Of a stretch of 64,000 bases of DNA, positions 26,685 through 57,770 are shown piece by piece (within the stretch, counting starts at the first letter, position 1; each line of letters opens with the position of its first letter). This DNA comes from an uncultured Flavobacteriales bacterium (GTDB lineage: Bacteria; Bacteroidota; Bacteroidia; Flavobacteriales_F; PHOS-HE28), in contig CAVPLQ010000008.1 in assembly GCA_963706125.1 (NCBI GenBank), forward strand, positions 682,308-746,307. The letters run 5' to 3'. Position numbers and translations under genes: made by a program. Under the pieces are notes generated by a model that worked only from the letters and a program-made list of their open reading frames with translations, ran no database searches and had not been told where the DNA came from.

Positions 26685-29600
26685 TCAGCTGGGTTCCGGT
26701 GTGGCTTGCAGGGATCCCATGGGTACGCGCACGGTGATCTTCGTTCCTTGGCCAACGGCACTATGGATGCCCAAGGCGGCCCCGATCTCCGAGGCGCGCT
26801 GGCTCATGTTGCGTAGGCCATGGTGGTCCGCCGACCGCGTGGCCAGTGTGTCGAAGCCGCTGCCGTCATCTTCCAGGTCGATCACCAAGTGTGCCTCCTC
26901 CATCCGGGCGCTCAAGGTACAGCGCCGGGCCGCTGCGTATTTGGCACAGTTGTTCATGGCCTCCTTCATGAGCAGAGTGATCGCACGGCGCGTCTCCATG
27001 GTGACGTGCATGCGCAATGCGGGTGGCGGCGGGGCGGTCACTTTGAAGGCCGTGGGTGTGGCATCGAAGAGGGCCAGCCCGAAGGAGGTGAGCCGTTCCA
27101 AGGTGTCCCCGAGGCTGTCCCGCGTGGGGTCCATGGTCCAGATCAGGTCGCGGATGCCGGCCGAGAGTTCCCGGCTGGCGGTCTCGATCTTCAGGAGATG
27201 CGGGACCAGTTCCGGGTTTCCGGCGGCGCGTTGGCGGACCAGTCCGGTGAAGAGATTGATGCGGGTGATGCGCGCCCCGGCCTCATCGTGGAAATCGGCA
27301 GCGCTCCTCCGGCGGAAGTTTTCGAACTGCTCCGCCTTGGCCTTTTCGGCGCTCGCATGCGCCGCTGCTTCCCGGCGGACCATCCGTAAGCGCATGCTGA
27401 AGACCGCATAGAGCACTCCGGCCAGCAGGCCCGCATAAGCGAGGTAGGCGTACCAGCGCAGCCACGGCGGGGCGAGCACATGGATCGCGAGCGAGGCCCC
27501 TTCGGTATTCCAGACCCCGTCGTTATTGGTGGCCTGCACATGCAGCCGGTATGAGCCCGGCGCCAAGTTGGTGAAGGTGACATCGTTGCGCGGGCCAAGG
27601 TCCACCCACCGTTCATCGAAGCCTTCCAGCCGGTACCGGTAGCGGTTCTTCTCCGGGGCGATGAAGTTCAGCGCCGCGAAGGTGAAGGTCAGCACATGGT
27701 GGTGCCAGGCCAAGTCAAGACGTTCCAGCTGATGCGGAGGGCGGTCGAGCGCGAGGCCGTCGCCGGTCCCTGCGGGCCGGACGGGCAGGGGCTTGTTGTA
27801 CAGGGCGATGCCGGTGAAACGCACGGGAGGCGGGCGCATGTTGGTCGCGAGGTCCGCTTCCCGGAACCAGGACAATCCGTTCGCACCACCGAAGTACAGC
27901 GTGCCATCGCGGCTCCGTATGAAGGCGTTCTGGTTGAACTCGTCTCCCGGCAGGCCGTCGCCTTGATCGAGCATGCACAATACCGTCCCGCTATCGGGGT
28001 CCCATTCCACCAGTCCGTCGTTGGTGCTCAGCCAGAGATGGCCGCCCTCGTCGGGCTGGATGCCATAGATCACCTCGTTAGGTAATCCGTCCGCACGGTT
28101 GTACCGCTTGAACATCCCTTCCTCCGCGCGGCCCTCCAGTACGGTGCGGCGCAGTTTCGTGTTCAATGGTCCGCGCGTGCGACAGAGGCCGTTCACCGTT
28201 CCCGCCCAGAGCCGGCCCTTCGGGTCCTGGTACAGGCAGAGCACGAGGTCCGCGCTGAGGCTGCCCATGTCCTCCGGTTCATGCTTCACCGTCCCGAAGG
28301 TGCCATCGGGGGAACGCAATAACAGGCCACCGCCCGCCGTGCCCGTCCAGAGGAATCCGGCATCATCCACAAGCAGGGTGAAGAGGTAGGGATGCGAAGG
28401 GCCGTCGCTACCACCGGTAGGACCTTGGCAGGAAAGGGCGCCGGCGGCGCTGTCCAACCGGCAGAGCCCCGCACCGCCCGTGGCGAGCCAAACGTTCCTG
28501 GACGTGGTGGTCAGGATGTGGTGAACGATGTCCGCACGACGCGGGTCGGTCAGGCCGACGGGCCTGTGGCGCTTGACCCCGATCTTTCCTTCGCGCTCGA
28601 CCACCTCGTTCAGCCCGCCGCCCAAAGTGCCCACGAGGATCCGTCCCTGATCGTCCATGGCGAGTGACAGTACGTAGTCCGCGCCTAAGGAGCTGGGGTC
28701 GCGTGGATCATACCGCAGGTGCCGGAACGCGTCCTTCGCGCGATCCCAGATCGTCAAGCCGGACGGGGAGCCGATCCAGATCCGGCCTTGCAGATCCTCG
28801 ATCAGCGCGGTCACGCTTGTATGTAACAGGCCATTGGTGTCCCCTGATGAATGCGTCAAGGCATGGACGGTCGGCTCCAGGCGATCGATGCGGTCCAGCC
28901 CGTTGCGGGTGCCCACCCAGATCTCGCCGCCGCGCCCGGCATGGATCGAAAGGACGTGGTCGTCCGCAAGGCTCGATGGGTCGTCGGGCCGGTGCCGATG
29001 GATGTAAGTGGCACCGCTTGACCGGACCATGAGGACCAGGCCGTGCGTGGTGCCGATCAGGATGTGATCCTTCAGAAGCAGGAAACACTGGAAGCCCATC
29101 TTCGGGTCGGCCGTGGAAAGCGAGCCTGCGTCCACCAGTACGGCTTCCTCCGCAGTGCGCGGGTCGATCCGGTAAAGCCGGCGGTTCTCCAGCACATGGA
29201 CAGCCTCCGGGGTGGCGGTTAAGGCGGTCACCTCCTGTTCCGTGCCGGTCCCCGGGCCCTGCTTCAAGACCTCCACCCCGCCGGTGGACATTGTGAACCG
29301 CAGCAGTCCCGCCCGGCCTTGGAGCAGCAGGTGGTCCGCATCACCGGGCGCCATGGCACCGATCAGGTCCCCTTCGGCCATGCCGCCCTCGATATAGCGT
29401 TGGACGCTTCCGGTTTCCATGTCCAACCGGTCGAGGCCCTTGCCGGTGCGCACCCACAGCACACCGGCAGGGTGCTCCAGCAAGCCCAGGACGCGGTCGC
29501 TGCTCAGGCTCCGGGGATTCTCCCTCGGCATGCCGGAAATGGCTGAACGCGTCGGTGCCGGGGTCATAGCGGTCGAGGCCGCCCCCGTAGGTGCCGATCC

Positions 29601-29871
29601 ACAGTGCGCCGTCCTGCGCTTCCAAGGAGGCCCACACATAGTTGTTGGAGAGGCTGTTCGCCGTGCCATCATTCCGGTAGGTGATAAAGCCGTGCCCGTC
29701 ATAGCGGCACAGGCCGTCCTGTGTGCCGGACCAGAGGAAACCGTACCGGTCCTCCAGCATCGTGTTCACGGAATTCTGGGGAAGCCCGTCGGTGTTGTCC
29801 AAGTGATGGAACCGCAGCGGGCCGGGTTGCGCGCATAAGGCTATGGAGACCGCCGCATAGGCGATGAGCAT
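26685..29871 (-). pseudogene. two-component-regulator-propeller (Y_Y_Y) hybrid sensor histidine kinase; frameshift near nt 29525
   Basis: N-terminal ORF 29341..30000 carries a signal/TM segment and the first Reg_prop repeats (..LSNNYVWASLEAQDGALWIGTYGGGLDRYDPGTDAFSHFRH), then runs into nonsense. ORF 26685..29702 resumes with ..ENPRSLSSDRVLGLLE.. Further propeller repeats, a Y_Y_Y domain, a TM helix, an H-box (..FHDEAGARITRINLFTGL..) and HATPase_c follow. The start codon (29871 or 29907) is uncertain. Confidence 0.7.
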
Positions 29872-31976: not shown

Positions 31977-32084
31977 GACCATTTTCGTGGATCCACGAAA
32001 ATGGTCGAAATTCAAGAACGCCGGAGCAAACAAATCTGCCCCGGCGTTCAATTCTCTGAAGTCACTCCGGGCTTGAACCGGAGT
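31977..32084. terminator. three consecutive hairpins between convergent genes (terminator region)
   Basis: Perfect 14-bp palindrome GACCATTTTCGTGG-atc-CCACGAAAATGGTC (31977-32006); AACGCCGG..16 nt..CCGGCGTT (32017-32048); ACTCCGG-gcttga-ACCGGAGT (about 32062-32084). Confidence 0.55.
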
Positions 32085-32104: not shown

Positions 32105-33919
32105 TCAATAGCCGTATTTCCCCTCGGCGATCATTATCTTCGATATCGCCTTCCGCAATTCCGCCGTATTCAAGTTCGTGCTCTTGCAAAAGCGCTTCGC
32201 GCCCATCAGCATGGCACGCTGTTCGTCGCCATCGGAGAAGTTGTTCACGGCTTCTTTCGCGTACTTGTGGATCCGATCGGCCGCATCATGTACAAAGAGC
32301 TGGCACATGGCCAACTGCTCTTTCACGTTATCAGTGCCCTTCATCTCGGCCAACTTCAAGGTCCGCAGTAATGCGCTTTCGGCGAGGTAGGTGTCGATCA
32401 CCATATCGGCGATGTGCATCAAGGTCTCTTGGTGCTTCGCCAGTTCTAGACCGAGTTTCTGCGCAGCGCCACCGGCCACCATCAGCACGGCCTTCTTGAA
32501 ATTCGTCTACCATACGCTTCTCGTCGCCGAGCAGTGAATCGTCAGGCTCCGGCATTTCGGGGAGGCCCATCAGTTCAGCGGCGACGGCTTCTGTGCAGGA
32601 CCCATCAGGTCCAGCTGGCCCTTCATCGCGCGCTTCAGCAGCATGTCCACCGTGAGCATGCGGTTGATCTCGTTCGTTCCTTCGAAGATCCGGTTGATGC
32701 GACTGTCGCGGTAGGCACGCTCTACGGGGCTTTCGGCGCTGTAGCCCATGCCGCCGAAGATCTGCACGCCTTCATCGCACACGTAGTCCAGGCATTCGCT
32801 GCCGGCCACTTTCAGGATCGCCGCTTCGGCAGCATACTGCTCCACACCTTTCAGCAAGGCTTTCGCGTGGTCCGCACCAGCGGCTTCCAAGGCTTCGATC
32901 GCCTGTTCCATATCGTAACTGCAACGGTAGGTCGCGCTTTCCACCACGTAGCAGTAGGTTGCTTGGTCGGCAAGCTTTTGGCGGATCGCACCGAACGAGC
33001 TGATTGGACGGCCGAACTGCTGCCGTTCGTTGGCGTACTGCACCGAATGGTCCACCACGGCCTTCGCGCCACCGAGCGCAGCCCCCGACAATTTGATGCG
33101 ACCGATGTTCAAGATGTTCACCGCGATCTTGAAACCGTTGCCGCGCTCACTCAGCAAATTCTCCACTGGCACCTTGCAATCGTTGAAGAACACCTGCCGC
33201 GTGCTGCTGCCCTTGATCCCCATCTTCTTCTCCTCCGGGTTCAGCGTGATGCCGCCGAAACTCTTCTCCACGATGAACGCGCTCAGGTTCTCATCCGCCT
33301 CGCCGGTCTTCGGGTCCACGATCTTGGCGAACACCGTGAAGATGTCCGCGAAACCACCGTTGGTGATCCACATCTTCTGGCCATTGAGGAGGTAGTGCTT
33401 GCCGTCATCGCTCAGCACCGCCTTCGTTTTCCCGCTGTTGGCATCGCTGCCGGCTCCGGGTTCCGTGAGACAGTACGCAGCCTTCCACTCGCCGGTGGCC
33501 AACTTCGGGATGTACTTCTTCTTCTGCTCCTCGGTGCCGTAATAGAGTATCGGCAGCGTGCCAATGCCTGTATGCGCCGCGATGGCCACGCTGAAACTAT
33601 GACCCGCCCCGGTCACTTCCGTCAGGAGCATCGTGGTCACGAAGTCCTTGCCGAAGCCGCCTAACTCTTCCGGCAAGGAGATGCCCAGCAGCCCGAGTTC
33701 ACCGGCCTTGTCCAGTAGGCTCGGCATCAGGCCCTCCTCCATGCTGTCGATGCGGTCCAAGTGCGGCCAAACCTCCTGCGACAGGAAGTCCTTTGCCGTC
33801 TGCGCAATCATGCGCTGCTCCTCGTTGAATTCTTCAGGAATAAAAATGTCCTTCGGGTCGCTTTCGCGGATCAGGAATTCGCCGCCTTGAAGGGCTTTGG
33901 GTTTGGTCTCTGTTGCCAT
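32105..33919 (-). pseudogene. long-form acyl-CoA dehydrogenase (about 600 aa, with C-terminal helical extension); two frame changes in the linker at about 32497 and 32580
   Basis: ORF 32570..33919 (449 aa) is a complete ACAD core (..[12 protein letters not shown].., ..[31 protein letters not shown]..). It continues in a second frame (..[26 protein letters not shown]..), then a third (FKKAVLMVAGGAAQKLGLELAKHQE.. = ORF 32105..32488), which is the usual C-terminal extension of this ACAD class. An extra T in gaaTTTcaag (about 32497) accounts for the second shift. Confidence 0.65.
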
Positions 33920-33975: not shown

Positions 33976-34011
33976 GTATGCACTAATTCGCATAAAGGTA
34001 TGCACGCATAC
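33976..34011. promoter_or_regulatory. tandem palindromic operator-like sites upstream of the acyl-CoA dehydrogenase gene
   Basis: GTATGCACtaattcGCATAa (33976-33995) and the near-perfect palindrome GTATGC-ac-GCATAC (33998-34011), 57-92 nt upstream of the ACAD start. Same motif as 40185..40198 upstream of marR. Confidence 0.5.
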
Positions 34012-34092
34012 TATATCCTGCAAGTACCGAGTGTGGAATGCCGGAAACATCCATTGGCAGCGGGATAACATCGAAGTAGGGAGGACGTTCTC

Positions 34093-35247
34093 CTAGTTCC
34101 AAGGACCGGTCTTCGTCACATGAAAGAAGCGCTTTCCACCTGTCCTGAGCGATGCCGAAGGATCGAAGCGGAAGAGCCCATTCCAGCCACCGAACCAGAA
34201 CCGTCCTTCCCGGTCCTCCATGATGGTGAGGATCCCGTTCGTGTCGAGGCCATCGTCGGTGTAGAAATTGGTGAAGGCCTTTCCGTCGTAACGATAAACC
34301 CCGAAGTTCTCCGCAGCGAACCAGATGTTCCCCTTCTTGTCCTCGTAGAACGCACCGACCTCCACACCTTGGATCACGCCGTCCTTGGTGAAGTTCTCGA
34401 AGGTCTTGCCATTGTATCGGCTCACTCCACCGAAGCTGCTGCCGATCCACAAGTTGCCCTTGCTGTCCTCGAATAGGCCGGTCACGCTGTTGTCCGCCAG
34501 GCCGTTCTCCGTAGCGTAGTGGGTGAAGGCTGCACTCGCATCGCTTATCCGCGGATCGTATTTGTACAAACCACCGGCATCGCGACCGAACCAGATGTTC
34601 CCCTTGATGTCTTCCAGGACGCACGTGATGCGTGTTCGGGATAGCATGGCGGTGGTGTCTTGTGCCCGCACTGCCGAAATAGGTACGGTGGTGAATGCCT
34701 TGCCATCGAAGCGGCATAGCCCGTCCATCGTGCCGATCCAGATCGTGCCATCGCGCCCCATGGTCATGCTCCAGATCTCATTGTGGAGCAGCCCATCCAT
34801 TGTGGTGAACTGGCTGAAGCCATGGCGAGATGAGCCGCGCTCGGCCGGCCCCCCCTGAGCTCGTCGAAGAGTGGGGCCGTACTTGAAGAGGCCTTCACCA
34901 TCTGTTGCTAACCAAATGTTCCCTTCGTGGTCCTCCACGATCCCGTTGATCCGGCCCGACGTGATGCCGACGCTATCGGCGAGGTACTCCAGTGTATCGT
35001 TCTGGTAGCGGATCGCGCCGTAGTGATTGGTGCCGAACCAGAGCGCACCGCGTTTGTCCTGATGCATGTTGCGCACCCAGTGACAGAGTTGCCCCTCGTA
35101 TGAAAGGCGCACGGGCCACTCGCTCGGGATCGGGACGGTATCGTTCGTGATCACCACCGGTTCCTTGATGCTGCTCTGTCCGTTGCAGGAGTAGAGGAAG
35201 AGCAATGAGCCGAAGGCTTGGCAGGCGATGGTGTGCGTGGTCTTCAT
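34093..35247 (-). CDS. lipoprotein made only of two-component-regulator propeller (Reg_prop) repeats, no kinase domains
   Basis: 384 aa, signal plus lipobox (..LLFLYSCNG). At least 8 repeats of the ..GNIWFGT..GL.RYDG..F..F form. One stretch (..KYGPTLRRAQGGPAERGSSRHG..) coincides with a G7 homopolymer (about 34860-34880) and may hide a compensated frameshift. Confidence 0.6.
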   Translation of the reverse strand: MKTTHTIACQAFGSLLFLYSCNGQSSIKEPVVITNDTVPIPSEWPVRLSYEGQLCHWVRNMHQDKRGALWFGTNHYGAIRYQNDTLEYLADSVGITSGRINGIVEDHEGNIWLATDGEGLFKYGPTLRRAQGGPAERGSSRHGFSQFTTMDGLLHNEIWSMTMGRDGTIWIGTMDGLCRFDGKAFTTVPISAVRAQDTTAMLSRTRITCVLEDIKGNIWFGRDAGGLYKYDPRISDASAAFTHYATENGLADNSVTGLFEDSKGNLWIGSSFGGVSRYNGKTFENFTKDGVIQGVEVGAFYEDKKGNIWFAAENFGVYRYDGKAFTNFYTDDGLDTNGILTIMEDREGRFWFGGWNGLFRFDPSASLRTGGKRFFHVTKTGPWN

Positions 35248-36097
35248 TTCTTCCTGCCCTTTGTGATCGCCTTCTTCCCCGGTGGCAGAAAGTTACTCCC
35301 TGAAACTACAGAACGCCCTGTGCGCTCTTCCAGCTCAAGCCGAGCCTTCTTCGCGATGCCACCACCTTTCCTTGCCGCCACTTTGTTCTTGGGCATCCCC
35401 TTGGCCTGATCACTCTCCGCGATCTGCCGTGTGCTCAGTTCCGCCAGAGCCGTGAAGGTCAGCTCCGCTTCGGTCCTATGGTCGCGCAGGTTCTGGGTCT
35501 TCAGGCCCTTGATCCCTTTATGGTCTTTCACGGTCACACCACTCCACTCCTGATGAATGATGTTCGTGAGGATCGCATACTCTTCACCCTCCTTGTTGTC
35601 ATGTTCCTTCCATTTGTCCGTGAGCTGGTTGCGCGTCTCCTGGCCCATCATGCGCTGCTGGATCCACTTCTCGCTACGGCCGTGCTTCAACCAAAGTTCG
35701 CGGGCGCGGTCCACGCCGAGGCTCGGGTCGGCCAGCTCCTGCATGCGTTCGTAATCCACCTTTGCCAGCCACAGTTTGATAGGTTCCGCCTTGGGGCTTG
35801 GAACGGACTGGACAAGTCGCAGCAAGGTCTCGGCGGTGGCTACATCGGTGAGGCGCAACCTGCCATCCTCGGCGGGCAATTTCAACCGGTTACAATCTGT
35901 AACCAGTTGACTTCCCTCTTTCTCCAGTCTGTGTATCAATACCTTCCAGTATTCCGGGCAAGCTGGTAGTCTGGCTGTTGGGCCAGTGCCTGAATGATGT
36001 CGATCACAGAGAACCACCAAGTCTCCGTGGCTTCGTCGTAGAGACGTCGAATGTGGTGTTGCTCAAAGAGGGCGGAAGAGGGTAGCAGGGCGCTCAT
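35244..36097 (-). pseudogene. dinD: DNA-damage-inducible protein D (DinD)-like / Bro-N domain protein; -1 frameshift near nt 35952
   Basis: ATG at 36095-36097 opens MSALLPSSALFEQHHIRRLYDEATETWWFSVIDIIQALAQQPDYQ.. (Bro-N-like). It is out of frame with ORF 35244..36020 (..YWKVLIHRLEKEGSQLVTDCNRLKLPAEDGRLRLTDVATAETLLRLVQSVPSPKAEPIKLWLAKV..KGMPKNKVAARKGGGIAKKARLELEERTG), which matches DinD over the whole length. Inserting one T in cggaat_actgg restores continuity. Confidence 0.6.
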
Positions 36098-36171
36098 GGG
36101 TTCAGCTATTCACCGTCGGCTTTCTCGTCGATCGGTGTTTGACAACATACTGCCTTCCGAACTCTTTCCGC

Positions 36172-37347
36172 TCAATTCAACAACTCAAACACACTCGCCG
36201 CACCCTGCCCGGCGCCCACACACATGGTAACAACGCCATACTTCTGTTTGCGACGTCTCATCTCATTGAAGAGCTGCACGCTCAGCTTCGCACCTGTGCA
36301 ACCCAGCGGGTGTCCCATCGCGATCGCGCCACCGTTCACGTTCACAATGCTCGGGTCCAGCCCAAGCTCACGGATCACCGCCAACGACTGCGACGCGAAG
36401 GCCTCGTTCAGCTCGATCAGCTCGATGTCCTTCAGCTTCAGTCCGGCCATTTCGATCGCCTTTGGCACTGCTGCGATCGGACCTATACCCATGATGCGCG
36501 GCGGCACGCCGGCCACGTGGTAGGAGAGGAGGCGCGCGATCGGCTTCACGTTCAATTGCTTCAGCATGCGCTCGCTCACCACCAGCACGAAGGCCGCGCC
36601 ATCGCTGGTCTGTGAGGAATTGCCGGCGGTCACGGTACCTTTTGGATCGAACACGGGGCGAAGTTTTGCCAGCCCTTCCAAGCTGCTCGTGCGCGGACCT
36701 TCATCCGTGTCCACCACGTATTTCTCCACTTGACGCTTTTCCCTCGCATCCAAGAAGACCCGCTCCACCTCGAAGGGTACGATCTCGTCCTTAAAGCGCC
36801 CGGCGGCGATGGCGGCCAGCGCTCTTTCCTGGCTCTGCAGTGCGAAAGCATCCTGGTCCTCGCGCGTCACCTTGTACTCGCGCGCAACGGCCTCGGCGGT
36901 GAGGCCCATGCCCCAATACCAAGTGGGATGTTCCTGCGCCACCTTGGCATTCGGCACAATGCGCCAGCCGCTGAAGGGGATGGGGCTCATGAACTCCACG
37001 CCCCCCGCGATGATGCAATCCGCCATGCCGCTTTGGATCTTGGCACTGGCGATCGCGATCGTCTCGCTGCCGCTGCTGCAATAGCGGTTCACCGTCATGC
37101 CCGGCACCTTCTCGTTGTTCAGGCCCATCAGGCTGATCATGCGGCCGATGTTCAGGCCCTGCTCCGCCTCGGGCGTGGCGTTGCCCACGATCACATCGTC
37201 CACTTGGTCGGGTGCGAGGTTGGGCACGGAGGCCATCAGGTGTTTGATCACGTGCGCGGCGAGGTCGTCGGGGCGGGTGAAACGGAATTTGCCACGAGGG
37301 GCTTTTCCTACTGCGGATCGGAATCCGGCTATGATGTATGCGTCCAT
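36172..37347 (-). CDS. fadA: acetyl-CoA C-acyltransferase (3-ketoacyl-CoA thiolase)
   Basis: 391 aa from ATG at 37345-37347 (MDAYIIAGFRSAVGKAPRGKFRFTRPDDL..). Thiolase active-site regions are present (..NRYCSSGSETIA.., ..NVNGGAIAMGHPLGCTGAKL.., ..MCVGAGQGAA..). In the ORF track it appears as the C-terminal third of a 1181-aa ORF (see findings). Confidence 0.85.
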   Translation of the reverse strand: MDAYIIAGFRSAVGKAPRGKFRFTRPDDLAAHVIKHLMASVPNLAPDQVDDVIVGNATPEAEQGLNIGRMISLMGLNNEKVPGMTVNRYCSSGSETIAIASAKIQSGMADCIIAGGVEFMSPIPFSGWRIVPNAKVAQEHPTWYWGMGLTAEAVAREYKVTREDQDAFALQSQERALAAIAAGRFKDEIVPFEVERVFLDAREKRQVEKYVVDTDEGPRTSSLEGLAKLRPVFDPKGTVTAGNSSQTSDGAAFVLVVSERMLKQLNVKPIARLLSYHVAGVPPRIMGIGPIAAVPKAIEMAGLKLKDIELIELNEAFASQSLAVIRELGLDPSIVNVNGGAIAMGHPLGCTGAKLSVQLFNEMRRRKQKYGVVTMCVGAGQGAASVFELLN

Positions 37348-37355
37348 GGTATGGT

Positions 37356-39717
37356 TCAATTGCGGAGCACCTTGCCCGTAGTTATGATCGATTGAAGTCT
37401 TTCCAGCGTCTTCCGCTGCATGCACAACTCCAAGAACGTCTTCCGCTCCAGGTCCAGCAGGTATTGCTCGGAAACCTCCGTCGATCTCCGAGAGGTCGCC
37501 GCCGCACATCACGTACCCCAGCTTCTCGCTGATCAGCGCGTCGTGCTCGCTGATGTAGTTGCCGCTCTGCATGCTGTTGGCGCCGACGTAAACAATGCCG
37601 AGGCCTTCCTTGCCGAGCACCTTGATGTCGCGGCGCATGGGCGGCTTGGTGTAGCCGCGTTCCCAGAGGGCGAGCGCGCATTCCTTGGCGTAGGCGAGCT
37701 GGTGTGCGCGGCTAACGATCACTTCGTCGATGCCTTCGCGCAGGTAGCCGAGGTCGAAGGCTTCTTGCCCGCTGGTGCTCACTTTGGCTTGGCCGATGGT
37801 GAGAAAGCGCTCGCGGAGCCGGTTGATGCGGATGTCGCCTTCCTTCAGTTCATCGCTGAGGCGCAGTGCGAATTCCTTGGTGCCGCCGCCGCCGGGTATC
37901 ACGCCGACGCCGAATTCCACGAGGCCCATGTAGGTCTCTGCGTGCGCCACCACTTTGTCCGCGTGCATGCAGAGTTCGGTGCCGCCGCCCAAGCAAAGCT
38001 GGTGCGGTGCGGCCACCACGGGGATGCTGCTGTGGCGCATGCGCATCATGGTGTTCTGGAAGGTGCGGATGGCCATGTCGAGGTCCTCGTACTCCTGTTC
38101 CACGGCCATCATGAAGATCATGCCCACGTTGGCGCCAGCGCTGAAGAGCGCGCCGTCGTTGTAGACCACGAGGCCTTTGTAGCCTACCTCAGCGATGTCG
38201 ATCGCTTTGTTGAGGCCCAGGATCACCTCTGCGCCGAAGGTGTTCATCTTGCTGCTCCAGCTCACGGCAAGGATGCCGTCGCCGAGGTGGCGCACTGTGG
38301 TGTCCTTGTTCTTCCAGACGATGCTGCTTTCCGGCAGGTCGGCAAGCACGATCAGTCCTTCCTGGCCCGGCACCGGCTTGTAGCTCTTGCTCGGGATATC
38401 GTAGAACAGCCGCTTGCCACCTTCACGTTTGTAGAAACTCGTGTTGCCTGCGGCCACGAAGTCCTTCACCCAAGGCGCCACCTTGACACCCTTCGCCTCC
38501 ATCTCCTCCGTTACCTCCTTCACGCCAATGGCCTCCCATGCCTCAAAAGGTCCCAGCTCCCAGCCGAAGCCGGCGCGCATGCCGTCATCGATGCGGTAGA
38601 GCTCGTCGCTGATCTCGGGGATGCGGTTGCTCACGTAAGCGAACATCGCTTGGAAGGAACGGCGGTAGAACTCGCCAGCCTTATCCGTGCCGTGGTAAAC
38701 GAGCTTGGTGCGTTCGCGCAGGTCGTCCACCTTCTTGGCGGCGTCCAGCGTGGCGAACTTGGGCTTCACCTGAGGCTTGTATTCGAGCGTTTTCAGGTCC
38801 AAGGAAAGGATCTCGCCTTTCTTGGTACTGCGATCCTTGAAGTAGAAGCCCTTGCCGGTCTTGCTGCCGAGCATCTGCTTCTCGACCATCTTCTGGAGAT
38901 ATTCCGGAATGGCGAAGAGGTCGTTGCGTTCATCCTTCGGGCAGTTGTCATGCACGCCTTTCGCGACGTTCACGAGCGTGTCCAATCCGACCACATCGGC
39001 GGTGCGGAAGGTGGCGCTCTTGGGGTGGCCGATCACGGGTCCGGTGAGGCGGTCCACCTCTTCCACGGAAAGGCACATGTCGTTGATCAGGTGGAAGATG
39101 TCCATGATGCCGAACACGCCGATGCGGTTGGCCACGAAGGCGGGCGTGTCCTTGGCCAGCACGGTGACCTTGCCCAGCACGCGGCGGCCGTATTCCTCAA
39201 GGAAGGCGATCACCGCCGGGTCGGTCTTCGGGCTGGGGATCAGCTCCAGCAGCGGCAGGTAGCGCGGCGGGTTGAAGAAGTGCGTGCCGAGGAAGTGTTT
39301 TGCGAAATCATCGCTGCGGCCTTCGAGCAAGGCGTGAATGGGTATGCCGCTGGTGTTACTGGTGATCAACGTGCCGGGCGTGCGGTATTTCTCCACGTTG
39401 GCATACACCTGCTGCTTGATGTCGAGGCGTTCCACCACCACTTCGATCACCCAATCGCAGTCCTTGATCTTCGGGAGGTCGTCGTCGAAGTTGCCGGTGG
39501 TGACGCGCTTCGCGAAACGCTTGTCGTAGATGGGAGAGGGGTTGCTCTTGAGAGCGAACGCCAGAGCATCGTCAACGATCTTGTTCCTCGGGCCTTCCTT
39601 CGGAACGATGTCGAGGAGCAGTACCTCGCAGCCCACGTTGGCGAAGTGGCAGGCAATGCGGCTGCCCATTACGCCGGATCCGAGGACGGCTACTTTTTTT
39701 ATCTGTCTGTTTGCCAT
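37356..39717 (-). pseudogene. fadB: fused 3-hydroxyacyl-CoA dehydrogenase / enoyl-CoA hydratase (FadB/FadJ-type), +1 frameshift about 130 nt before its stop (about 37485)
   Basis: MANRQIKKVAVLGSGVMGSRIA.. (Rossmann 3HCDH) through the crotonase domain to ..GYVMCGGDLSE. The native C-terminus (..PTEVSEQYLLDLERKTFLELCMQRKTLERLQSIITTGKVLRN, stop at 37356-37358) is in the +1 frame. In the track frame it reads through 8 nt of intergenic DNA into fadA. Confidence 0.8.
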
Positions 39718-40160
39718 TATTTGAAGAGTTCGTCGTTGTCTAAAAGCGTATTGATCTTGTTCATCACGTTGTGAAAGGTCTGTAGTTGGCCTGCGGGAAT
39801 ATTGGCGCTCACGGCCTCGTTAAAACGGATCACGGTGTCCTTGCTCAGGTCGCGCATCTGTTTGCCCTTGGCCGTCAGCATCACCCGGCTCATGCGGCCA
39901 TCGGAGCTGTCCGCCACGCGCCTGATCAGGCCTTCCGCTTCCATGTTCTTCAGGGTGCGCGTGAGGCTGCGCGCCTCCATGCCCATCTTGGGTCCGAGCT
40001 TGGTGCTGGGCGTTCCCTCGGGATCGATGTTCAGCAGCACGTAACCGATGCTCATTGAGCCGCCATGCTCCGATGCCTTCTCATTGTAGCGCCGCATGAT
40101 GCGATGCCACGCCCAGCGGATCGGATGGTCTATGGTCTCCTCGGGCCTCATGGTCGTCAC
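39717..40160 (-). CDS. MarR-family transcriptional regulator
   Basis: 147 aa winged HTH (..SIGYVLLNIDPEGTPSTKLGPKMGMEARSLTRTLKNMEAEGLIRRVADSSDGRMSRVMLTAKG..). Its stop TAA overlaps the fadB start by 1 nt. Confidence 0.8.
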   Translation of the reverse strand: MTTMRPEETIDHPIRWAWHRIMRRYNEKASEHGGSMSIGYVLLNIDPEGTPSTKLGPKMGMEARSLTRTLKNMEAEGLIRRVADSSDGRMSRVMLTAKGKQMRDLSKDTVIRFNEAVSANIPAGQLQTFHNVMNKINTLLDNDELFK

Positions 40161-40184
40161 AAGGTCCGAAGGTAATCAGGAATA

Positions 40185-40198
40185 GTATGCGTGCATAC
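40185..40198. promoter_or_regulatory. 14-bp palindrome GTATGCGTGCATAC 25 nt upstream of marR start; candidate MarR operator
   Basis: Perfect inverted repeat GTATGC-gt-GCATAC; same motif found at 33998-34011. Confidence 0.5.
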
Positions 40199-40268: not shown

Positions 40269-42324
40269 TTAGCGCATCAAGCTCAAGTGCCCGTGGAAGC
40301 TCTCGTCGTTGATCTGCACTTCGTAGAAGTAGACCCCTTCGCTCGCGGGTCCACCGTTCTCCTGCTTCCCGTCCCAGCCATTGTTGCCGCCGTTGCTTTC
40401 ATGGACCAGTTTGCCCCAGCGATCAAAGATCCGCAACTGGAAACAAGGGTCAAGCGTTTGCGTCGACTTCAGCTTGAACCGGTCGTTCACATTGTCGTGG
40501 TTTGGCGTGAAGACATTGGGCAGCTCGAAGTGTACGAGTTCACCGTACGGGGCGACCTCGATGGTTTGTTCGGCGTAGCCGGTACAGCCCGTGTTGGTGG
40601 TGGTCTGCAGACCGATGGTGGTGGGTCCGTTGAAGGGCAGCAGGAATTCGGGACCGTTCTGCCCGACGGTCGTGGCCGATCCGTTCACGGTCCAGGTGGA
40701 GCCCACGGTGTTCGGGCTGGTATCGAGGGCCCGGGCGAGGATGCCTAAGCAGGTGGTGTCCGTGGTGACGGTGAATTCCGCCGGTGGGGTGGTGAGGATG
40801 TTGATCGGTTGCATGGTCTCCATCGTGCATCCGTTCAGGGAACGCTCCACGGTGATCTGCCCGATGCCGGGGTCTCCCCAAGCGATGGTGACACAGCTAC
40901 TGTCGGAACCGGAAAGGATCGTGCCCCCGGTCACGGTCCACGCATAGGTGGCATTCTCGATCAGTTCGGTGCAGTATTCCGCGGTGGTCTGGCCGGAACA
41001 ACCGATGCCCAGTCCGGAGATCGTGGGCGGCGCCGAACTAGGCACTACGTTGATGGTGACGGTGGCGCTGAAGGTCCCGGGCGGACATCCTTCATCATAC
41101 ACCAGTACAGAGAAGTTGTACGGATCCGTGCTCCCCTGTGCGCAGACCGTGGGCCAGCAGAATTGCGTGGTGAGCAGGCTGTCCCCGGTGGAAGGCCCGG
41201 TGATCGTCGCGGGCGGGTCGGTCTGGGCATTGAGGAAGATCGCGCCGATGGCACTGAAGTTGATCACATCACCGTCGGAGTCCGTGAAGGTCATGGGGAA
41301 GCACAGGGTGTCCCCGGCCACCACTTCGTAATTAGCGACGAACTGCCCGTCCAAGGGCTGCGGTGCGGCATTGCTTCCGCTGCATGGCACGCTTAAGAGC
41401 TGCAGGTCGCTCCGGATCAGGCCGATCAATTGACCGTTCCGGTATTCCCTCACTTCCACCACCACCACCCAGTTGCCGATCATCGGCGCGACATATTCCG
41501 TGGCGCCGGTCACCGGGTCGATACTGGCGTAACCAGAGGGTCCGAAAGGCATCCCCGTGGTGATCCCCAGGCCGTATTGCACCGGCTGCAGGGGCCAGTC
41601 CAAAAGGGTGGGCGGATTCGATCACGCCACCGATGTCGTCCTGAGAGCCATAGGGCGTATCAAAACTGAACACGAGTGAATCTCCGTCGCTATCGATGGC
41701 CGCATTGCTGAACGCTGTGGTGTCGGAGATGCAGATGTACGGCACCGGTGTCCCGGTGAACACGGGCGAAGAATTAGCGATGGAGGTGGGTGGCATGTAG
41801 GAATAGAACCCCATGCCCGCTTCGCCGGGGTCTTGCAGATTGACGATCGCACCATTACGGGCGAAGAGCTGCAGATAGAGGTGAAAGCCGGTATTGCTGG
41901 CCGAGAGCACCACCTCGCCCTCCAATCGGCTTTCCTCCACGCACTGGCCATCGCCCAGGTTGCAGCCGGCGGGTATGTTGGGCGTGATCACGCCATAGGA
42001 AGTCAGATAGACCATGGCGGTCTGGATCTGGTTCTTGTCGGCGCCGGGCGCGGTGGGGTCGTCGGCATAGACCCCGATGGGCACGCCAGTCGATGCGTTG
42101 CCGAGCAGGTCGATGATCGAAGGAAAGCTTGAACCGGAGCCGCAGTTGATAAAGAGCCTTACGATCACTTTATACCTGTATTCCCCGGTCCCCGGAGCGG
42201 TCTCACCGAGATATTGATAGCCCAGATCACCACCGACGATATGGGTGGCGCGTGCGCTGAATGATGTGGCGAAGCAGGCCAATAAGAACAAGATCCGCAC
42301 AGGCCGAATAATGAATTGTATCAT
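40269..42324 (-). pseudogene. large secreted protein with T9SS type-B (gliding-motility-associated) C-terminal domain; frameshift near nt 41610
   Basis: ATG at 42322-42324 gives signal peptide MIQFIIRPVRILFLLACFATSFSA and ..THIVGGDLGYQYLG.. Frame breaks at ..QDDIGGVIESA|PTLLDWPLQPVQYG (ccc/tttt run at about 41605-41620). Continuation is ORF 40269..41603, with Cys-rich Ig-like repeats and the type-B CTD (..LPNVFTPNHDNVNDRFKL..IFDRWGKLV..WDGK..GVYFYEVQIND..). Confidence 0.65.
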
Positions 42325-42450
42325 CTGGCGTTTTTTTTGATAGGGTCCCCAAAGTAGGGAGATGGATCGATCTCGTGGGTTTTTTCGCCGAAAAAGCGGA
42401 TGTTGGTGCTTCCCGGTCCATATTTGACGACCGACCTGACGAAAATGTAG

Positions 42451-43353
42451 ATGAACACAAGCCCCATCCTTCCGCTGCTCGCCGTTGCCGTTCTTTTTGC
42501 CTGCCAGAAGGAACGACCGGACCCGGTCCCATCGGTTCCTGCGGCAACAGCTCCCCGCTTGATCATGAAGTTCAAGTTCGACAGCACCCAGGTACGCTTG
42601 GGCAGCTTCGGGGAACCGGTGTCGGTACCGGCAGGGCATGGGGCGCAAAGCCCGCGCTTCAACGTGATGAGCGCGCACTATGTGGAATTCACCCCCACGG
42701 CATCGACGGCGCTGGGCAATGGTTCGGTGGTGTACCAAAGCCCGTCCACCACATCAGGTGGTGCCACGGCGATCGATTTTTCGCATGAGGTGATCGTGGG
42801 GGATGGCGGCACCTTCCTCAATATCCCGCTTTCCTCCTTGGCAGCTGGCACCTATGAATGGCTTCGGGTCTCCTTGGCGTACCAGAACTACGACGTCGAT
42901 TTCCGCTACACGGACCCGCAATTTGGCCAGTTCAACCTCACCGGCACCTTGGCCTCCTTTATCGGGTACAACACCTACATCGGGAGCTATCAGATCGGCC
43001 AGCAAACGGTCACGGTTAATGGCAACAGGCTCCAAGGCTACTGGGGCTTTGAGGTGAACGATCCACCGATCCCGATGGCGCCCATCACCGGGCAGGCCCC
43101 CGGTACCACGGTGGTCAATCCTTTATTCGGCACTTCGGCCATTCCGGCCGGATCCTGCGTGGTCACCGGAGGTTTTGCACAACTGCTCACCATCACAGGC
43201 AACGAGACGCAGGATATCACGATTACCGTTTCGCTCAGCACGAACAAGAGCTTCGAGTGGAGCGATGCCGCTGGCGACAATATCTATGAGCCGCTCGCCG
43301 GGGATACGGTGGTGGACATGGGCATCCGCGGCCTGGTGCCGATCGTGGAGTGA
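42451..43353 (+). CDS. hypothetical lipoprotein
   Basis: 300 aa. MNTSPILPLLAVAVLFAC lipobox, beta-rich, no recognisable domain. Confidence 0.5.
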   Translation: MNTSPILPLLAVAVLFACQKERPDPVPSVPAATAPRLIMKFKFDSTQVRLGSFGEPVSVPAGHGAQSPRFNVMSAHYVEFTPTASTALGNGSVVYQSPSTTSGGATAIDFSHEVIVGDGGTFLNIPLSSLAAGTYEWLRVSLAYQNYDVDFRYTDPQFGQFNLTGTLASFIGYNTYIGSYQIGQQTVTVNGNRLQGYWGFEVNDPPIPMAPITGQAPGTTVVNPLFGTSAIPAGSCVVTGGFAQLLTITGNETQDITITVSLSTNKSFEWSDAAGDNIYEPLAGDTVVDMGIRGLVPIVE

Positions 43354-46895: not shown

Positions 46896-47289
46896 GGGGC
46901 CGACATGGTTTCGACAGCGGCTACGTGGTGCGTGTAAGCATGCAGAGCGGTGGGGAACGGCTCTTCAAAACGATCTCCAAGCCCTAACAGGCAACACTGA
47001 GTACGCACTTGCTGCTTAATAGCCCAAGGCTATGAAGCTTTACCCCGTGAACAACAGTAGCGGGGGCAAGTATCCTTCGGGGAGGCCCGCAACCCTCCTT
47101 CCCGGCCCAAGGATATCATCATGGGAAGCTGGTCAGCGCGGTGGTCCGTAGCGCTGATGAGACAACAGGACCTAAGCTGTCAGTAGGGTGTCCTTCCCCG
47201 GCTGACTTTCGAAAACCAACGGAGGAAGAAGCATGTGGAAAGCTCGTGTTGCGGTCGTTTGGACGAGGGTTCGAATCCCTCCGGCTCCA
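46896..47289 (+). ncRNA. ssrA: tmRNA (ssrA)
   Basis: 5' end GGGGCCGACATGGTTTCGACAGCGG matches the tmRNA consensus GGGGCUGAUUCUGGAUUCGAC. Tag reading frame ..GGC AAC ACT GAG TAC GCA CTT GCT GCT TAA TAG (46990-47022) encodes (..)GNTEYALAA**. 3' tRNA-like T-arm GGACGAGGGTTCGAATCCCTC and acceptor strand CGGCTCC pair with the 5' GGGGCCG; discriminator A; CCA not encoded. Confidence 0.85.
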
Positions 47290-47386
47290 CAGGAGATGGA
47301 GTGGTGACGCGAAAGCGGCACCGCTTCGCGAAGCGAAGTATTCGGGGTTTACCCCGGGCGTAGCCCCGGGGGATTCCTCCGGCTCC

Positions 47387-54646: not shown

Positions 54647-54690
54647 CAATGAAAAGGGCCATCTCGGAATGAGACGGCCCTTTTTCGTTG
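54647..54690. terminator. rho-independent terminator after rplI
   Basis: aaaaGGGCCATCTCggaatGAGACGGCCCtttttcg (one mismatch in a 10-bp stem, T5 tail). Confidence 0.7.
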
Positions 54691-54803
54691 AAGTCATTCC
54701 GCGTGTGCAAGGCCATGGAATTGACCATGGATGTCCTGCCGTACAGAAGGACGCTGAACTTTGTCAGTGGGTCGAGGCTGCGGTACACCGACATTCGCAG
54801 GCT

Positions 54804-57770
54804 ATGCGCTTATGCACCTTGGTATATCTGTTCAGTGCCCTTACGGCACGGACCATGGCTCAACAGGTGGAAGTGACGTGCTATGGCATTGCCGGGGGTC
54901 TGCCGCAGAGCATGGTGAACCACGTACTTCAGGATGCCGATGGATTCATTTGGTTCGGCACCGGCGATGGGCTTGCCCGCTTCGACGGGTCGCGCTTCAC
55001 CGTGTACAAGTATGATCAGGAGGACAGTACCAGTCTTTCCCACAATGAGATCTGGGGGATCGCCCAAGCGGACTCCCGCCACCTGTTCATCGGCACCCGC
55101 AGTGGTTTGGACCTATTGGAGACCCGCTCCGGTTTATTCACGCACCTGTCCGTTGGATCGCGAGGCGGGCAGAATGGATGCTGGCAACAACTGTGGGCAG
55201 GAAGGGACAGCGCGTTGTTCTACTCTCCGCTCACTCAGGAACTACTGTCCCAAAGCCCCGACGGCTTCCACCGGAAGGCCTTTGCGCATGGTGCGTCTTA
55301 TTGCATGCGGATGTCCGCGGGCGGCCGCTACTTGGACCAGTACCTGTTCCCGGACACCCTTCTTTCCTCCGACTTCCAAAAGGGTGTGGAACATGTGCGC
55401 ATCCTTCCACGCAAGGGCGAAGTCTTGGACATGATCCGGCTCGACAGCAGTTGGTTGATGTTGGGGAAGCACGGCGCTTGGCGATGGATGGATGATGGTA
55501 GCGAACGGGAACTGCCGCTGCCATTGCGCGAGCTCGTCAGCCGTGTCCCGGGGACCAAGTATGTGGAAAGGGATGCGAACGGTGTCCTTTGGATGGGGGT
55601 CAGCGGCGTTGGAGTGGTCGTTCTCCGGCCCGATCTGTCAGTGAAGCGTCTCTATCCGTTGGAGGACGACGCGCGTTCATTGAGGATCACGAGCCTGTTC
55701 TTCGATCGTCAAGGGAACATTTGGGTAGGCAGCGACGGCAAAGGTGTGTTCCGCATCGCCCCGCAACGCATCAAGTTCGGACGGGCGATGCCCGGGACGC
55801 TTGGCTGGCGACCAAACTCTTGGTTCGTGCGGGATCTTGTCCAATGGGATGCGCACCACGTGCTGGTCAGCTTCGACCAAGGAGGGCTGGCCCTGTTCGA
55901 TGAGCGAAGCCTGACACTCTCCCCGTTGAAGATGGCGACGATCAATGAGAACGGCACCTACGCCAAGTTGAAACGTGATGTGGACGGGATCATCTGGTTC
56001 TTGGACGGGAACACATTGACCGCCATCGATCCGGCGACCTCCCGCGTGGTGATGCGGGGGGATGCAGGAACGAACCGGAAGTTGTTGCTGGACCCCGACG
56101 GTCACTTGCTCGTGATCCAGCTTGATGGTGTACGGCGTTTCGAACTCCTTGCGGGTCGGCTGGTCAAAGAGGATGTCCCCATGCCGGCCTTTATAGCTTG
56201 GCTGGACAGTGCCCGGAACCTGCCGCACCATGTGCAGTTCGACCCGCTAGGTCGGCTTTGGAGTTCCCGCGCTGGGCGTTTGACGGACGTCTGGCCAAAG
56301 GGGGCGGAGCGACCGCCCATGCATCCCTTCCCGATGGACGTCCGGCTGAACCAGCTCTTTGACATCGGGGACGGCACCGGATGGGCATGCACCAACAACG
56401 GGCTGTATGAGCTCCGATGGAAGGACTTGCACGTGCTGAAACATCTGTTTCCGCCGCATGGTCCTTCCGACGCGTTCGTATACGGCATGTTGGCTGACGG
56501 TGCCGGGCATCGATGGATCAGCAGTAACAAAGGACTCGATCGGGCCACGACCACGCTCGACACGATCCGGAACTACACCATCGAAGATGGGCTTCAGAGC
56601 ATGGAGTTCAATAGCAACGCCTTCTTCCGCAGCGCCAGTGGCCGGCTGTACTTCGGCGGCATCAACGGCTTCAACCACTTCCTGCCGAACGAAGTGAACG
56701 ACGACCCGGACGGCCCGCCGGTAGTCCTCATGCGGACATGGGCCCAAGACAGTCTGATCACCTTGGCGGAACATGATCCGACCATCGTACTGCCCTATCC
56801 GTTCAACCGTTTGGAACTGGAGATCGCCGTGCTGGAGATGAGCGATCCGGAGCGGTCTGCTTTCCGCTATCGCATGGCGGGATTCCAAGGCTATTGGCGC
56901 AACGCTTCACCACAGCGCACTCTTATTTTGGAACGCATTCCAGCCGGTGCCTTCACGCTGGAGGTGCAAGGGCTGAACGCCGACGGTGTTGCCGGTCCCG
57001 TATCGCTTTTGCTCAACATCGTCGTGCCTCTTCCGTTCTGGGCCTCTATTTGGTTCAATGTGCTCGTCGGTTGTGTGCTGGCCGCTGCGGTCGCGTGGTT
57101 GTTTTTCATCTATTATCGCCGCCGTAGGAACGCTGAGCTGGAGCGCGCCGAAAGGGGGATGGACGAGCTACGCCTGCGCACCCGCCTAGCGCAGGACATC
57201 CACGATGACATCGGCAGCGGTCTGGCCCGTATCACCGCCTTGTCACGGTCTCCAAAGCGGAGCACCGATGCGGAGGCGCGGTTCGAGAAGCTGGGTGGGA
57301 TCAGCAGTGAGATGCTCCATGACCTGCGCGACGTGGTCTGGATGAACACCCCCGGGAACGGGACGTTGGGTCCGCTGTTGATCCGTATCCGCGAACATGC
57401 GACGGATCTTTTCGAGGGGACGACGACCAAGGTGACCTGCGAATTCCCCGAACCACTGCCCACACGCCGGATCGGGGGGAAGGCGCGTCGCAATGTGTTG
57501 CTGATCGCCAAGGAAGCCTTGCAGAATGCCCATAAATATAGCGGTGCAAAGAACATCGTTCTCCGTTGGACCAATGATACCAGTGGATTTTCATTAGCCA
57601 TCAGCGATGATGGATGCGGTATCACCGGCGATGTGCCTCAAGGGGGCGGTCAGGGTTCGTGGAACATGCGGCAGCGCGCGGAGGAAATGAATGCGGATTA
57701 TGATCGCTCCTGTACTGCAGCAGGGACCACGGTGCGTATTTTCGGCCCAACGGCACTACTGAATGAGTGA
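54804..57770 (+). CDS. two-component-regulator-propeller (Y_Y_Y) hybrid sensor histidine kinase
   Basis: 988 aa from ATG at 54804. Signal/TM MRLCTLVYLFSALTARTMAQ, many Reg_prop repeats (..DGFIWFGTGDGLARFDG..), Y_Y_Y beta-sandwich, TM helix (..WFNVLVGCVLAAAVAWLFFIYY), H-box ..LAQDIHDDIGSGLARI.. and HATPase_c. Paralogue of the kinase at 26685..29871 but intact. Confidence 0.8.
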   Translation: MRLCTLVYLFSALTARTMAQQVEVTCYGIAGGLPQSMVNHVLQDADGFIWFGTGDGLARFDGSRFTVYKYDQEDSTSLSHNEIWGIAQADSRHLFIGTRSGLDLLETRSGLFTHLSVGSRGGQNGCWQQLWAGRDSALFYSPLTQELLSQSPDGFHRKAFAHGASYCMRMSAGGRYLDQYLFPDTLLSSDFQKGVEHVRILPRKGEVLDMIRLDSSWLMLGKHGAWRWMDDGSERELPLPLRELVSRVPGTKYVERDANGVLWMGVSGVGVVVLRPDLSVKRLYPLEDDARSLRITSLFFDRQGNIWVGSDGKGVFRIAPQRIKFGRAMPGTLGWRPNSWFVRDLVQWDAHHVLVSFDQGGLALFDERSLTLSPLKMATINENGTYAKLKRDVDGIIWFLDGNTLTAIDPATSRVVMRGDAGTNRKLLLDPDGHLLVIQLDGVRRFELLAGRLVKEDVPMPAFIAWLDSARNLPHHVQFDPLGRLWSSRAGRLTDVWPKGAERPPMHPFPMDVRLNQLFDIGDGTGWACTNNGLYELRWKDLHVLKHLFPPHGPSDAFVYGMLADGAGHRWISSNKGLDRATTTLDTIRNYTIEDGLQSMEFNSNAFFRSASGRLYFGGINGFNHFLPNEVNDDPDGPPVVLMRTWAQDSLITLAEHDPTIVLPYPFNRLELEIAVLEMSDPERSAFRYRMAGFQGYWRNASPQRTLILERIPAGAFTLEVQGLNADGVAGPVSLLLNIVVPLPFWASIWFNVLVGCVLAAAVAWLFFIYYRRRRNAELERAERGMDELRLRTRLAQDIHDDIGSGLARITALSRSPKRSTDAEARFEKLGGISSEMLHDLRDVVWMNTPGNGTLGPLLIRIREHATDLFEGTTTKVTCEFPEPLPTRRIGGKARRNVLLIAKEALQNAHKYSGAKNIVLRWTNDTSGFSLAISDDGCGITGDVPQGGGQGSWNMRQRAEEMNADYDRSCTAAGTTVRIFGPTALLNE

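Follow-up and report, generated by a model that had tools for sequence, protein, structure and literature searches.

A conserved palindrome as the probable shared operator of marR-fadBA and a detached acyl-CoA dehydrogenase gene in Flavobacteriales

Introduction

Can a beta-oxidation gene that lies apart from its operon still answer to the regulator of that operon? The question is raised by a 64-kb stretch of DNA from an uncultured Flavobacteriales bacterium (hereafter the window, meaning the whole stretch that was analysed), in which a marR-fadB-fadA operon and a separate gene for a FadE-type acyl-CoA dehydrogenase (ACAD) are each preceded by a perfect 14-bp palindrome. We define the operator by its core TATGC-RY-GCATA, which takes the form GTATGC-RY-GCATAC in this genome; the motif is also written TATGCRYGCATA. 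The palindrome is a real control site that is conserved across Flavobacteriales. We put at about 0.8 the probability that the locally encoded MarR repressor, acting through this one operator, autoregulates marR-fadBA and co-regulates the detached ACAD gene, a reading drawn from sequence and its conservation.

Two exact copies in the window

Three segments had been put forward as operators in the original prediction, and two of them are retained here.

40185-40198, unstranded: operator O(marR), the perfect 14-bp palindrome GTATGCGTGCATAC; core kept at marR in orthologues
33998-34011, unstranded: operator O(acd), the perfect 14-bp palindrome GTATGCACGCATAC; core kept at the separated ACAD gene in orthologues
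33976-33995, unstranded: the 'second degenerate copy', with no support for operator function; falls at roughly -7 to +13 in the predicted promoter of ACAD

In a scan of the window, the 14-mers of O(marR) and O(acd) are the sole exact matches to GTATGCNNGCATAC, at precisely the coordinates first reported for them. Base composition leads one to expect 0.003 such matches per window against the two seen, and 100 dinucleotide-preserving shuffles of the window contain none, which bears out the earlier judgement that two copies are unlikely by chance. With one or two mismatches allowed, the scan of the window returns background-level matches only and no further sites, and none of the 10 large open reading frames (ORFs) checked outside the cluster in the window is a fatty-acid gene.

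Between O(marR) and the ATG of marR at 40151, the start that we adopt because homologues are almost all 144 amino acids long, lie 33 nt, and O(acd) stands 78 nt upstream of the ACAD ATG. The palindrome had been placed 25 nt before marR; its adjacency to the gene stands, whereas the distance of 25 nt applies to a start at GTG and not to the homologue-supported ATG. The third segment carries the letters that had been given for it, but it does not behave as an operator, with half-sites that are 8 nt rather than 2 nt apart and a dyad that is not conserved. Where the window has TTATGC as the left half, the closest relatives have TTATCC, and in orthologues TTATCC is followed by GCATAC, GCAAAC, ACATAC or CCGTAC, the right half being variable. 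The segment surrounds the predicted ACAD transcription start.

Conservation of the core in orthologous loci

The operator was followed through 80 orthologous Flavobacteriales loci taken from species-representative genomes (1,109,560 bases; MarR identity 58-95%), sites being assigned to marR within at most 120 nt upstream of it and to the ACAD gene within at most 200 nt upstream. The 12-bp core used for the locus counts, TATGCNNGCATA, occurs 89 times in the 1.11 Mb, 74 times ahead of marR, 15 times ahead of ACAD and never elsewhere, against an expectation of 0.6 from composition in the 80 loci. The worry attached to the original prediction, that the motif might be equally frequent in random DNA, is dispelled for the orthologous loci by this distribution, in which 0 of 89 copies lie outside the two promoters.

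Of the 79 testable loci, 74 carry the core ahead of marR without mismatch, and three more (L010, L022 and L025) carry it with one mismatch. Copies with one mismatch outside both promoters number 11 in the 80 loci, against roughly 17 expected by chance on a rough composition-based estimate, and hidden degenerate sites were rejected on this ground. When the sites are aligned on the core, the 10 arm positions are invariant in all 91 sites, and the flanks carry about zero information. The central dinucleotide is of the RY type (AC, GC, AT or GT) in 90 of the 91, the remaining site, at an ACAD gene, having TT. The core is kept where MarR identity drops to about 41-60% and the flanking DNA is unalignable. 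The gene order marR-fadB-(inserts)-fadA-(inserts)-ACAD is likewise conserved in the orthologous loci.

The ACAD copy follows separation from fadA

The presence of the second palindrome tracks the distance between the ACAD gene and fadA. In the 17 loci, window included, in which ACAD lies at least 772 nt from fadA, 16 have the palindrome before ACAD, whereas it is present in none of the six loci in which the two genes are at most 75 nt apart (Fisher p = 7e-5). The cultured Salinimicrobium (GCA_026676115.1), with the gene order marR-fadB-(four-helix-bundle gene)-fadA-ACAD, carries the operator in front of marR, whereas its adjacent ACAD gene has none. A copy that appears only when ACAD is uncoupled is the pattern expected if the detached gene must keep the operon's control.

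Promoter context

Bacteroidetes promoters carry a TTG at -33 and a spacer of about 19 nt. The flavobacterial sigma-A -7 box reads TAnnTTTG and occupies positions -12 to -5 (PMC9723704). Both window promoters are predicted to have this layout.

40167-40174, minus strand: predicted marR -7 box TACCTTCG, consensus TAnnTTTG; conserved block in relatives
33993-34023, minus strand: predicted ACAD promoter, with the -33 TTG at 34023-34021, a 20-nt spacer and the -7 box TACCTTTA at 34000-33993; 16-site consensus

At marR, the left arm TATG of the operator lies exactly 19 nt upstream of the -7 box and takes the -33 position itself. A conserved TAcCTTcG (block Ta.cTT.gG) follows the core by 11-12 nt in 75 marR sites, and three AT-rich relatives (L043, L027 and L207) have a perfect TAnnTTTG there, namely TATCTTTG, TATATTTG and TAACTTTG. 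Transcription of marR would start near 40162. At the ACAD gene, the promoter takes the form TTG-N20-TACCTTTA; 16 ACAD sites share TTTG-N19/20-TAcCTTTA with flanks that are otherwise unconserved, the TA of the -7 box is formed by the final two bases of the operator core, and the spacer contains most of the operator. The predicted start lies near 33988. Since the palindrome overlaps the -33 or -7 elements at both promoters, occlusion of the promoter by a bound repressor is likely.

The predicted marR 5' leaders of many relatives (L045, L021, L057 and L066 among them) contain a second, short palindrome, TTCGG-N1-2-CCGAA, downstream of the -7 box, of which the window has the first half only (TTCGGaCC, within 40152-40170).

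The MarR protein

The marR product scores 31.1 bits against Pfam MarR (PF01047; gathering threshold 24.6) and 23.1 bits against HTH_27 (threshold 22.2). Its AlphaFold2 model (pLDDT 86.6) shows the helices and two-stranded wing of the MarR winged-helix fold, and Foldseek aligns it with MepR-DNA and SlyA-DNA at template-modelling (TM) scores of 0.82 and 0.81 (0.73-0.82 over the DNA complexes of MepR, SlyA and MarR). PDB 5h3r (E. coli MarR) and the CouR-DNA complex 6c2s are among the fold matches, and 6jbx (FabT) is a weak PDB match. Identity to any solved MarR protein is 15-22%, the best PDB match having E = 5e-8. There are 1926 homologues of the window protein, mostly of 144 amino acids, and at least 8000 of a Salinimicrobium-type member. 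Throughout the family, the helix-turn-helix segment GTPSTKLGPKMGME.RSLTRTL is nearly invariant, in parallel with the invariant arms of the DNA site. A perfect, conserved palindrome overlaps the predicted marR promoter, and binding of a MarR dimer to it is putative.

Assignment to a known subfamily fails. The protein scores 22.8 bits against the FabT equivalog NF050133 (cut-off 200) and 29.2 bits against NF052638, the model for OhrR (cut-off 200), a name that some sources give to the homologues, and the sensing cysteine of OhrR is absent; scores also fall far below the SlyA and HpaR equivalog cut-offs. The product has no cysteine at all, which excludes thiol-based sensing. No GntR helix-turn-helix with FCD domain and no TetR_N domain was found with Pfam and NCBIfam, which return MarR-type domains only. 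Specific kinship to FabT, OhrR, CouR or any solved MarR protein was therefore rejected, the similarity being generic and at the level of the family.

Metagenome matches and a lead to fatty-acid synthesis

Public metagenome contigs were scanned for the 16-bp extended palindrome GTTATGCNNGCATAAC, a version frequent among the relatives, with matches at 120 or more loci. Most of the matches listed are due to chance or to unrelated hairpin-containing sequences. Among the matches listed, a Pfam scan of the ORFs that start beside the sites gives MarR four times, KAS III/FabH-like proteins three times and ACAD twice; nearly all other families occur once and two occur twice. The MarR matches are orthologues at 41-57% identity, followed by fadB, so that the motif persists over wide divergence.

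The KAS III matches comprise a 352-aa type (L107 and L166) and a canonical FabH of 334 aa (L156). The form TATGCAYGCATA stands 50-70 nt upstream of KAS III/FabH-type genes (L107:8537, L166:1243, L156:5287, L201/L202:2940 and L203/L204:2938), in genomes of the Cellulophaga, Maribacter and Zobellia types. Among orthologues of the 352-aa KAS III gene, the palindrome is upstream in Maribacter arcticus and in a Zobellia-type genome, and is absent in Allomuricauda (L205) and Arenibacter (L206). The sites are hints of a regulon that reaches fatty-acid synthesis in some Flavobacteriaceae. Neither the window nor the 80 loci yielded a KAS III gene, and for this genome the extension is a lead and not a result.

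Gene models of the cluster

All genes of the cluster are on the minus strand.

39717-40151, minus strand: marR, 144-aa MarR-family winged-helix regulator without cysteine (Pfam MarR, homologues)
37356-39717, minus strand: fadB, 3-hydroxyacyl-CoA dehydrogenase/enoyl-CoA hydratase (Pfam 3HCDH_N, 3HCDH, ECH_1)
36172-37347, minus strand: fadA, acetyl-CoA C-acyltransferase, 391 aa (Thiolase_N, Thiolase_C, NCBIfam thiolase models)
35244-36020, minus strand: 258-aa ORF between fadA and ACAD, earlier called 'dinD'; no family match
34093-35247, minus strand: 384-aa protein with Reg_prop beta-propeller repeats between fadA and ACAD (Pfam Reg_prop, 5e-36)
32105-33919, minus strand: ACAD, FadE-type acyl-CoA dehydrogenase (Pfam Acyl-CoA_dh_N/M/1)
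32016-32049, minus strand: strong terminator-like hairpin, 15-bp stem and T-rich tail, after the restored ACAD stop

The proposed target genes together encode the FadB, FadA and FadE activities (3HCDH and ECH, thiolase and ACAD domains), and the ACAD protein scores 653 bits against the NCBIfam model for FadE of the Bacillus type (cut-off 600). The marR stop and the fadB start overlap by 1 nt in the sequence TAATG, where a 1-nt junction had been described. The second junction first described, of 8 nt between fadB and fadA, is correct only for the ancestral frame, where 8 nt separate the TGA that natively ends fadB from the ATG of fadA; as it stands, the sequence reads as one fused ORF. This 1181-aa ORF (36172-39717) exists because an insertion of 1 nt near 37484 (37470-37495, ggagatCGacgg against ggagat-Cacgg in an alignment to L001, L005, L077 and L004) moves the final ~47 fadB codons into the open frame of fadA. 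The base is extra relative to all four relatives, and a native FadB-FadA fusion was rejected.

The ACAD gene is broken by two insertions about 95 nt apart, one of 2 nt (~32575, cacagAAgccg) and one of 1 nt (~32480, atggtAgacg), with in-frame stops between them; the restored frame ends at 32105, and the gene is uninterrupted in 17 relatives (596-612 aa). Three indels in so short a stretch (7 kb) hint either at an assembly prone to errors or at gene decay in an early stage. The ORFs 40269-41603 and 41332-42738 also overlap, which together with the fadB and ACAD indels suggests that indels are frequent in this assembly.

The label dinD for the 258-aa ORF had to be dropped, as the protein has no match in Pfam, NCBIfam or PDB. 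Its homologues occupy the equivalent position in L001, L004, L015, L055, L057 and L077, and the 384-aa Reg_prop protein has homologues in L057 and L077.

The beta-oxidation operon of the clade is repeatedly split on either side of fadA, towards fadB and towards ACAD, by inserts of 0.8-5 kb (L001-L080, L207). These include four-helix-bundle '23S_rRNA_IVP' genes (L207:10909-11280), homologues of the 258-aa ORF and short repeats of the cataagacataagaca type; fadB and fadA are still adjacent in the window and in a few relatives (L034, L043 and L077). A structured element of about 125 nt, absent from the window, lies between fadB and fadA in the orientation of the operon in 27 of the 80 loci, often directly upstream of the fadA ATG (e.g., L066:8072-8184 and L058:15952-16057). 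The consensus structure that RNAalifold predicts from 18 copies has a closing stem GCGUG/CACGC, a long-range GGGAUAG/UAGCCC pairing that covaries with GCGAUCG/GAGCGC, and two hairpins, with compensatory changes in 10 of 24 pairs. The element matches Rfam Flavo-1 (RF01705) over its full length at a sub-threshold score (35.9 bits against a gathering threshold of 42, E = 2e-6); we know of no function for this RNA motif.

Elsewhere in the window, a tmRNA gene is located at 46896-47292 on the plus strand (Rfam RF00023, 132.7 bits), and a neighbouring CHU_C/T9SS protein, with the names carried by homologues, assigns the window to an uncultured lineage of Flavobacteriales. Three proteins with Reg_prop beta-propellers are encoded, at 34093-35247, 26685-29702 and 54669-57770; the 384-aa copy inside the split fad cluster is the small one, Y_Y_Y domains accompany the repeats in two of the three, and a histidine-kinase ATPase domain is present in one.

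Discussion

In the arrangement that we favour, a dimer of the MarR protein encoded at 39717-40151 would bind TATGC-RY-GCATA at two promoters. The first, P(marR), in which the operator would extend from about -36 to about -23 and place its left arm at -33, would drive marR-fadB-fadA, marR and fadB probably being translationally coupled. The second, P(acd), in which the operator would span about -23 to -10 and take up the spacer together with the opening bases of the -7 box, would drive the FadE-type ACAD gene, detached from the operon by the insertion of two unrelated genes. Bound MarR would block sigma-A RNA polymerase at both promoters, and a lipid-derived ligand, most likely a long-chain acyl-CoA or a fatty acid, would free MarR and so induce both beta-oxidation and marR. 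The original proposal of marR autoregulation combined with control of the distal ACAD gene is supported by the 74, 15 and 0 distribution of the core, by the contrast of 16/17 with 0/6 and by the promoter overlap. That MarR is a simple repressor we consider probable. Whether its inducer is long-chain acyl-CoA is closer to an even bet, based on analogy with the GntR- and TetR-type FadR proteins (PMC6449355) and with CoA-ester-sensing MarR proteins.

Several observations weigh against this reading. The assignment of the operator to this particular MarR is made from position and co-conservation, and the specificity counts cover orthologous loci rather than complete genomes of the lineage. Upstream of marR, two of the 79 testable loci (L007 and L018) have no recognisable site; L025 has a separated ACAD gene without the palindrome, and a fadD-like gene for an AMP-binding protein 6 kb from the Salinimicrobium cluster is without a site. 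Comparisons with PDB, NCBIfam and Foldseek gave no specific similarity to MarR proteins that sense acyl-CoA or acyl-acyl carrier protein (acyl-ACP). The frameshifts in fadB and ACAD may mean that the module is decaying here or that the assembly is error-prone. Finally, some KAS III promoters carry the site further upstream, about 20 nt before the -7 box, so that the regulator may do more than repress, or more than control beta-oxidation; its regulon may be wider than that pathway.

These upstream KAS III sites, which are compatible with activation, bear on a possible variant in which MarR does bind the operator but is not a simple repressor released by acyl-CoA, being instead a dual regulator or a sensor of free fatty acids, acyl-ACP or another metabolite. 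The protein shows no sequence signature of a CoA-binding pocket, and FabT, also of the MarR family, uses acyl-ACP as a co-repressor. Repression is favoured, however, by the overlap of the site with a -33 or -7 element at both window promoters. In Flavobacterium psychrophilum, beta-oxidation genes are induced by lipid-rich host material (PMC9723704), and all characterised fad regulators respond to acyl-CoA (PMC6449355), which speaks for release by that ligand.

It is unlikely that the operator, though real, is bound by an unlinked factor such as a global regulator of lipid or carbon metabolism, with the adjacent MarR having another target or ligand. The motif does occur at KAS III genes far from any marR, as it would for a global regulator, and a LacI- or TetR-type protein could also read a 14-bp dyad. 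What tells against such a factor is that conservation of the motif is highest at marR itself (77/79 loci), directly upstream of the gene, which is the hallmark of autoregulation. The motif also follows marR orthologues down to about 41-57% identity in independent metagenome matches, the recognition segment of MarR is nearly as invariant as the DNA arms, and the cluster contains no second conserved regulator gene.

Far less probable is a role of the palindrome as an RNA hairpin (an attenuator, terminator or processing site). Any palindrome can form a hairpin, and for this one a stem of 5 bp with a tetraloop is predicted, but its stability is no better than that of shuffles (z = -0.5, -0.2, -0.9 and -1.1), and the site lies upstream of the predicted transcription start at both genes. 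Arms that are invariant without compensatory changes, around a centre constrained to RY, together with folding energy at the level of shuffles, point to a protein-binding DNA site. Chance or a dispersed repeat or mobile element is a negligible prospect: although the 16-bp variant occurs in many unrelated places in metagenomes, some in recurrent hairpin-containing sequences, 0.003 copies are expected per window, 89/89 copies in 1.1 Mb stand at two orthologous promoters and no flanking repeat is common to both sites. The RNA-hairpin, chance and repeat readings are effectively excluded.

In water, in soil and in association with hosts, Flavobacteriales play a major part in the degradation of organic matter. 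The flavobacterial transcriptome in which beta-oxidation genes are induced by lipid-rich material does not name their regulator (PMC9723704), and those fad regulators that have been characterised are GntR- and TetR-family proteins (PMC6449355). In the literature we found no MarR-type regulator of beta-oxidation for Bacteroidota, and a prior description is possible, for instance in subscription journals or RegPrecise. What is new is the pairing of regulator and pathway, a precise operator and a possible link to KAS III. The mechanism follows the textbook case of MarR autoregulation, so that the value of the finding lies in annotation and physiology and not in a new principle. The regulator family, the exact operator TATGC-RY-GCATA and the two promoter architectures are testable outputs, for which Salinimicrobium, Maribacter and Zobellia are available as cultured organisms, and the operator enables prediction of the regulon across thousands of genomes. 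It is a doubtful, though conceivable, extension that this MarR family, which also occurs in cultured Flavobacteriaceae, is the master regulator of fatty-acid homeostasis in Flavobacteriales, a functional analogue of E. coli FadR on a MarR scaffold that uses the one invariant operator to control fadBA and fadE as well as two different KAS III/FabH-type genes at the start of fatty-acid synthesis.

Comparison with known systems

Escherichia coli MarR recognises marO through arms of 5 bp and a centre of 2 bp, and ligand-released repression is the norm of the MarR family. The present system resembles E. coli MarR, MepR, OhrR and SlyA in its winged-helix MarR fold (TM 0.73-0.82) in having the regulator gene first in its own operon, and in a putative palindromic operator, with arms of 5-6 bp around a 2-bp centre, that overlaps the promoter; its architecture is the classical one of MarR/marO. 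It differs from this group in its targets, which are beta-oxidation genes rather than genes for efflux or stress, and in its Bacteroidetes -33/-7 promoter. Unlike OhrR and SarZ, the cysteine-free protein cannot be a thiol sensor.

FabT of Streptococcus, Enterococcus and Lactococcus is a MarR-family protein dedicated to fatty acids, with a palindromic operator, autoregulation within its cluster and the sensing of an acyl thioester. However, FabT represses the genes of type II fatty-acid synthesis (FASII) and binds better with acyl-ACP, whereas the main targets here are catabolic. MarR proteins of the CouR/FerR type are freed from a palindromic operator by a CoA thioester (hydroxycinnamoyl-CoA). 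That ligand is an aromatic CoA ester and the pathway is phenylpropanoid catabolism, and in neither sequence nor structure is the present protein closer to this type than to generic MarR proteins.

The system can also be set beside the FadR regulators. E. coli FadR, of the GntR family, also has a palindromic operator at several beta-oxidation promoters and, if the KAS III sites are real, would share with the present regulator a link between fatty-acid degradation and synthesis (PMC6449355). In contrast to E. coli FadR, the protein described here has no GntR or FCD domain and would read another motif, and E. coli fadR lies outside the fadBA operon. The TetR-type FadR proteins of Bacillus subtilis (FadR/YsiA), Thermus and Sulfolobus offer a parallel in that the repressor is encoded in a fad cluster, is autoregulated and has extra operators at distal ACAD and fad genes; they are released by acyl-CoA (PMC6449355). 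Here the fold is that of MarR and the operator sequence is unrelated to theirs. The regulator would work like FadR but is a MarR-family protein by fold, belonging to neither FadR family and being no orthologue of FabT or OhrR.

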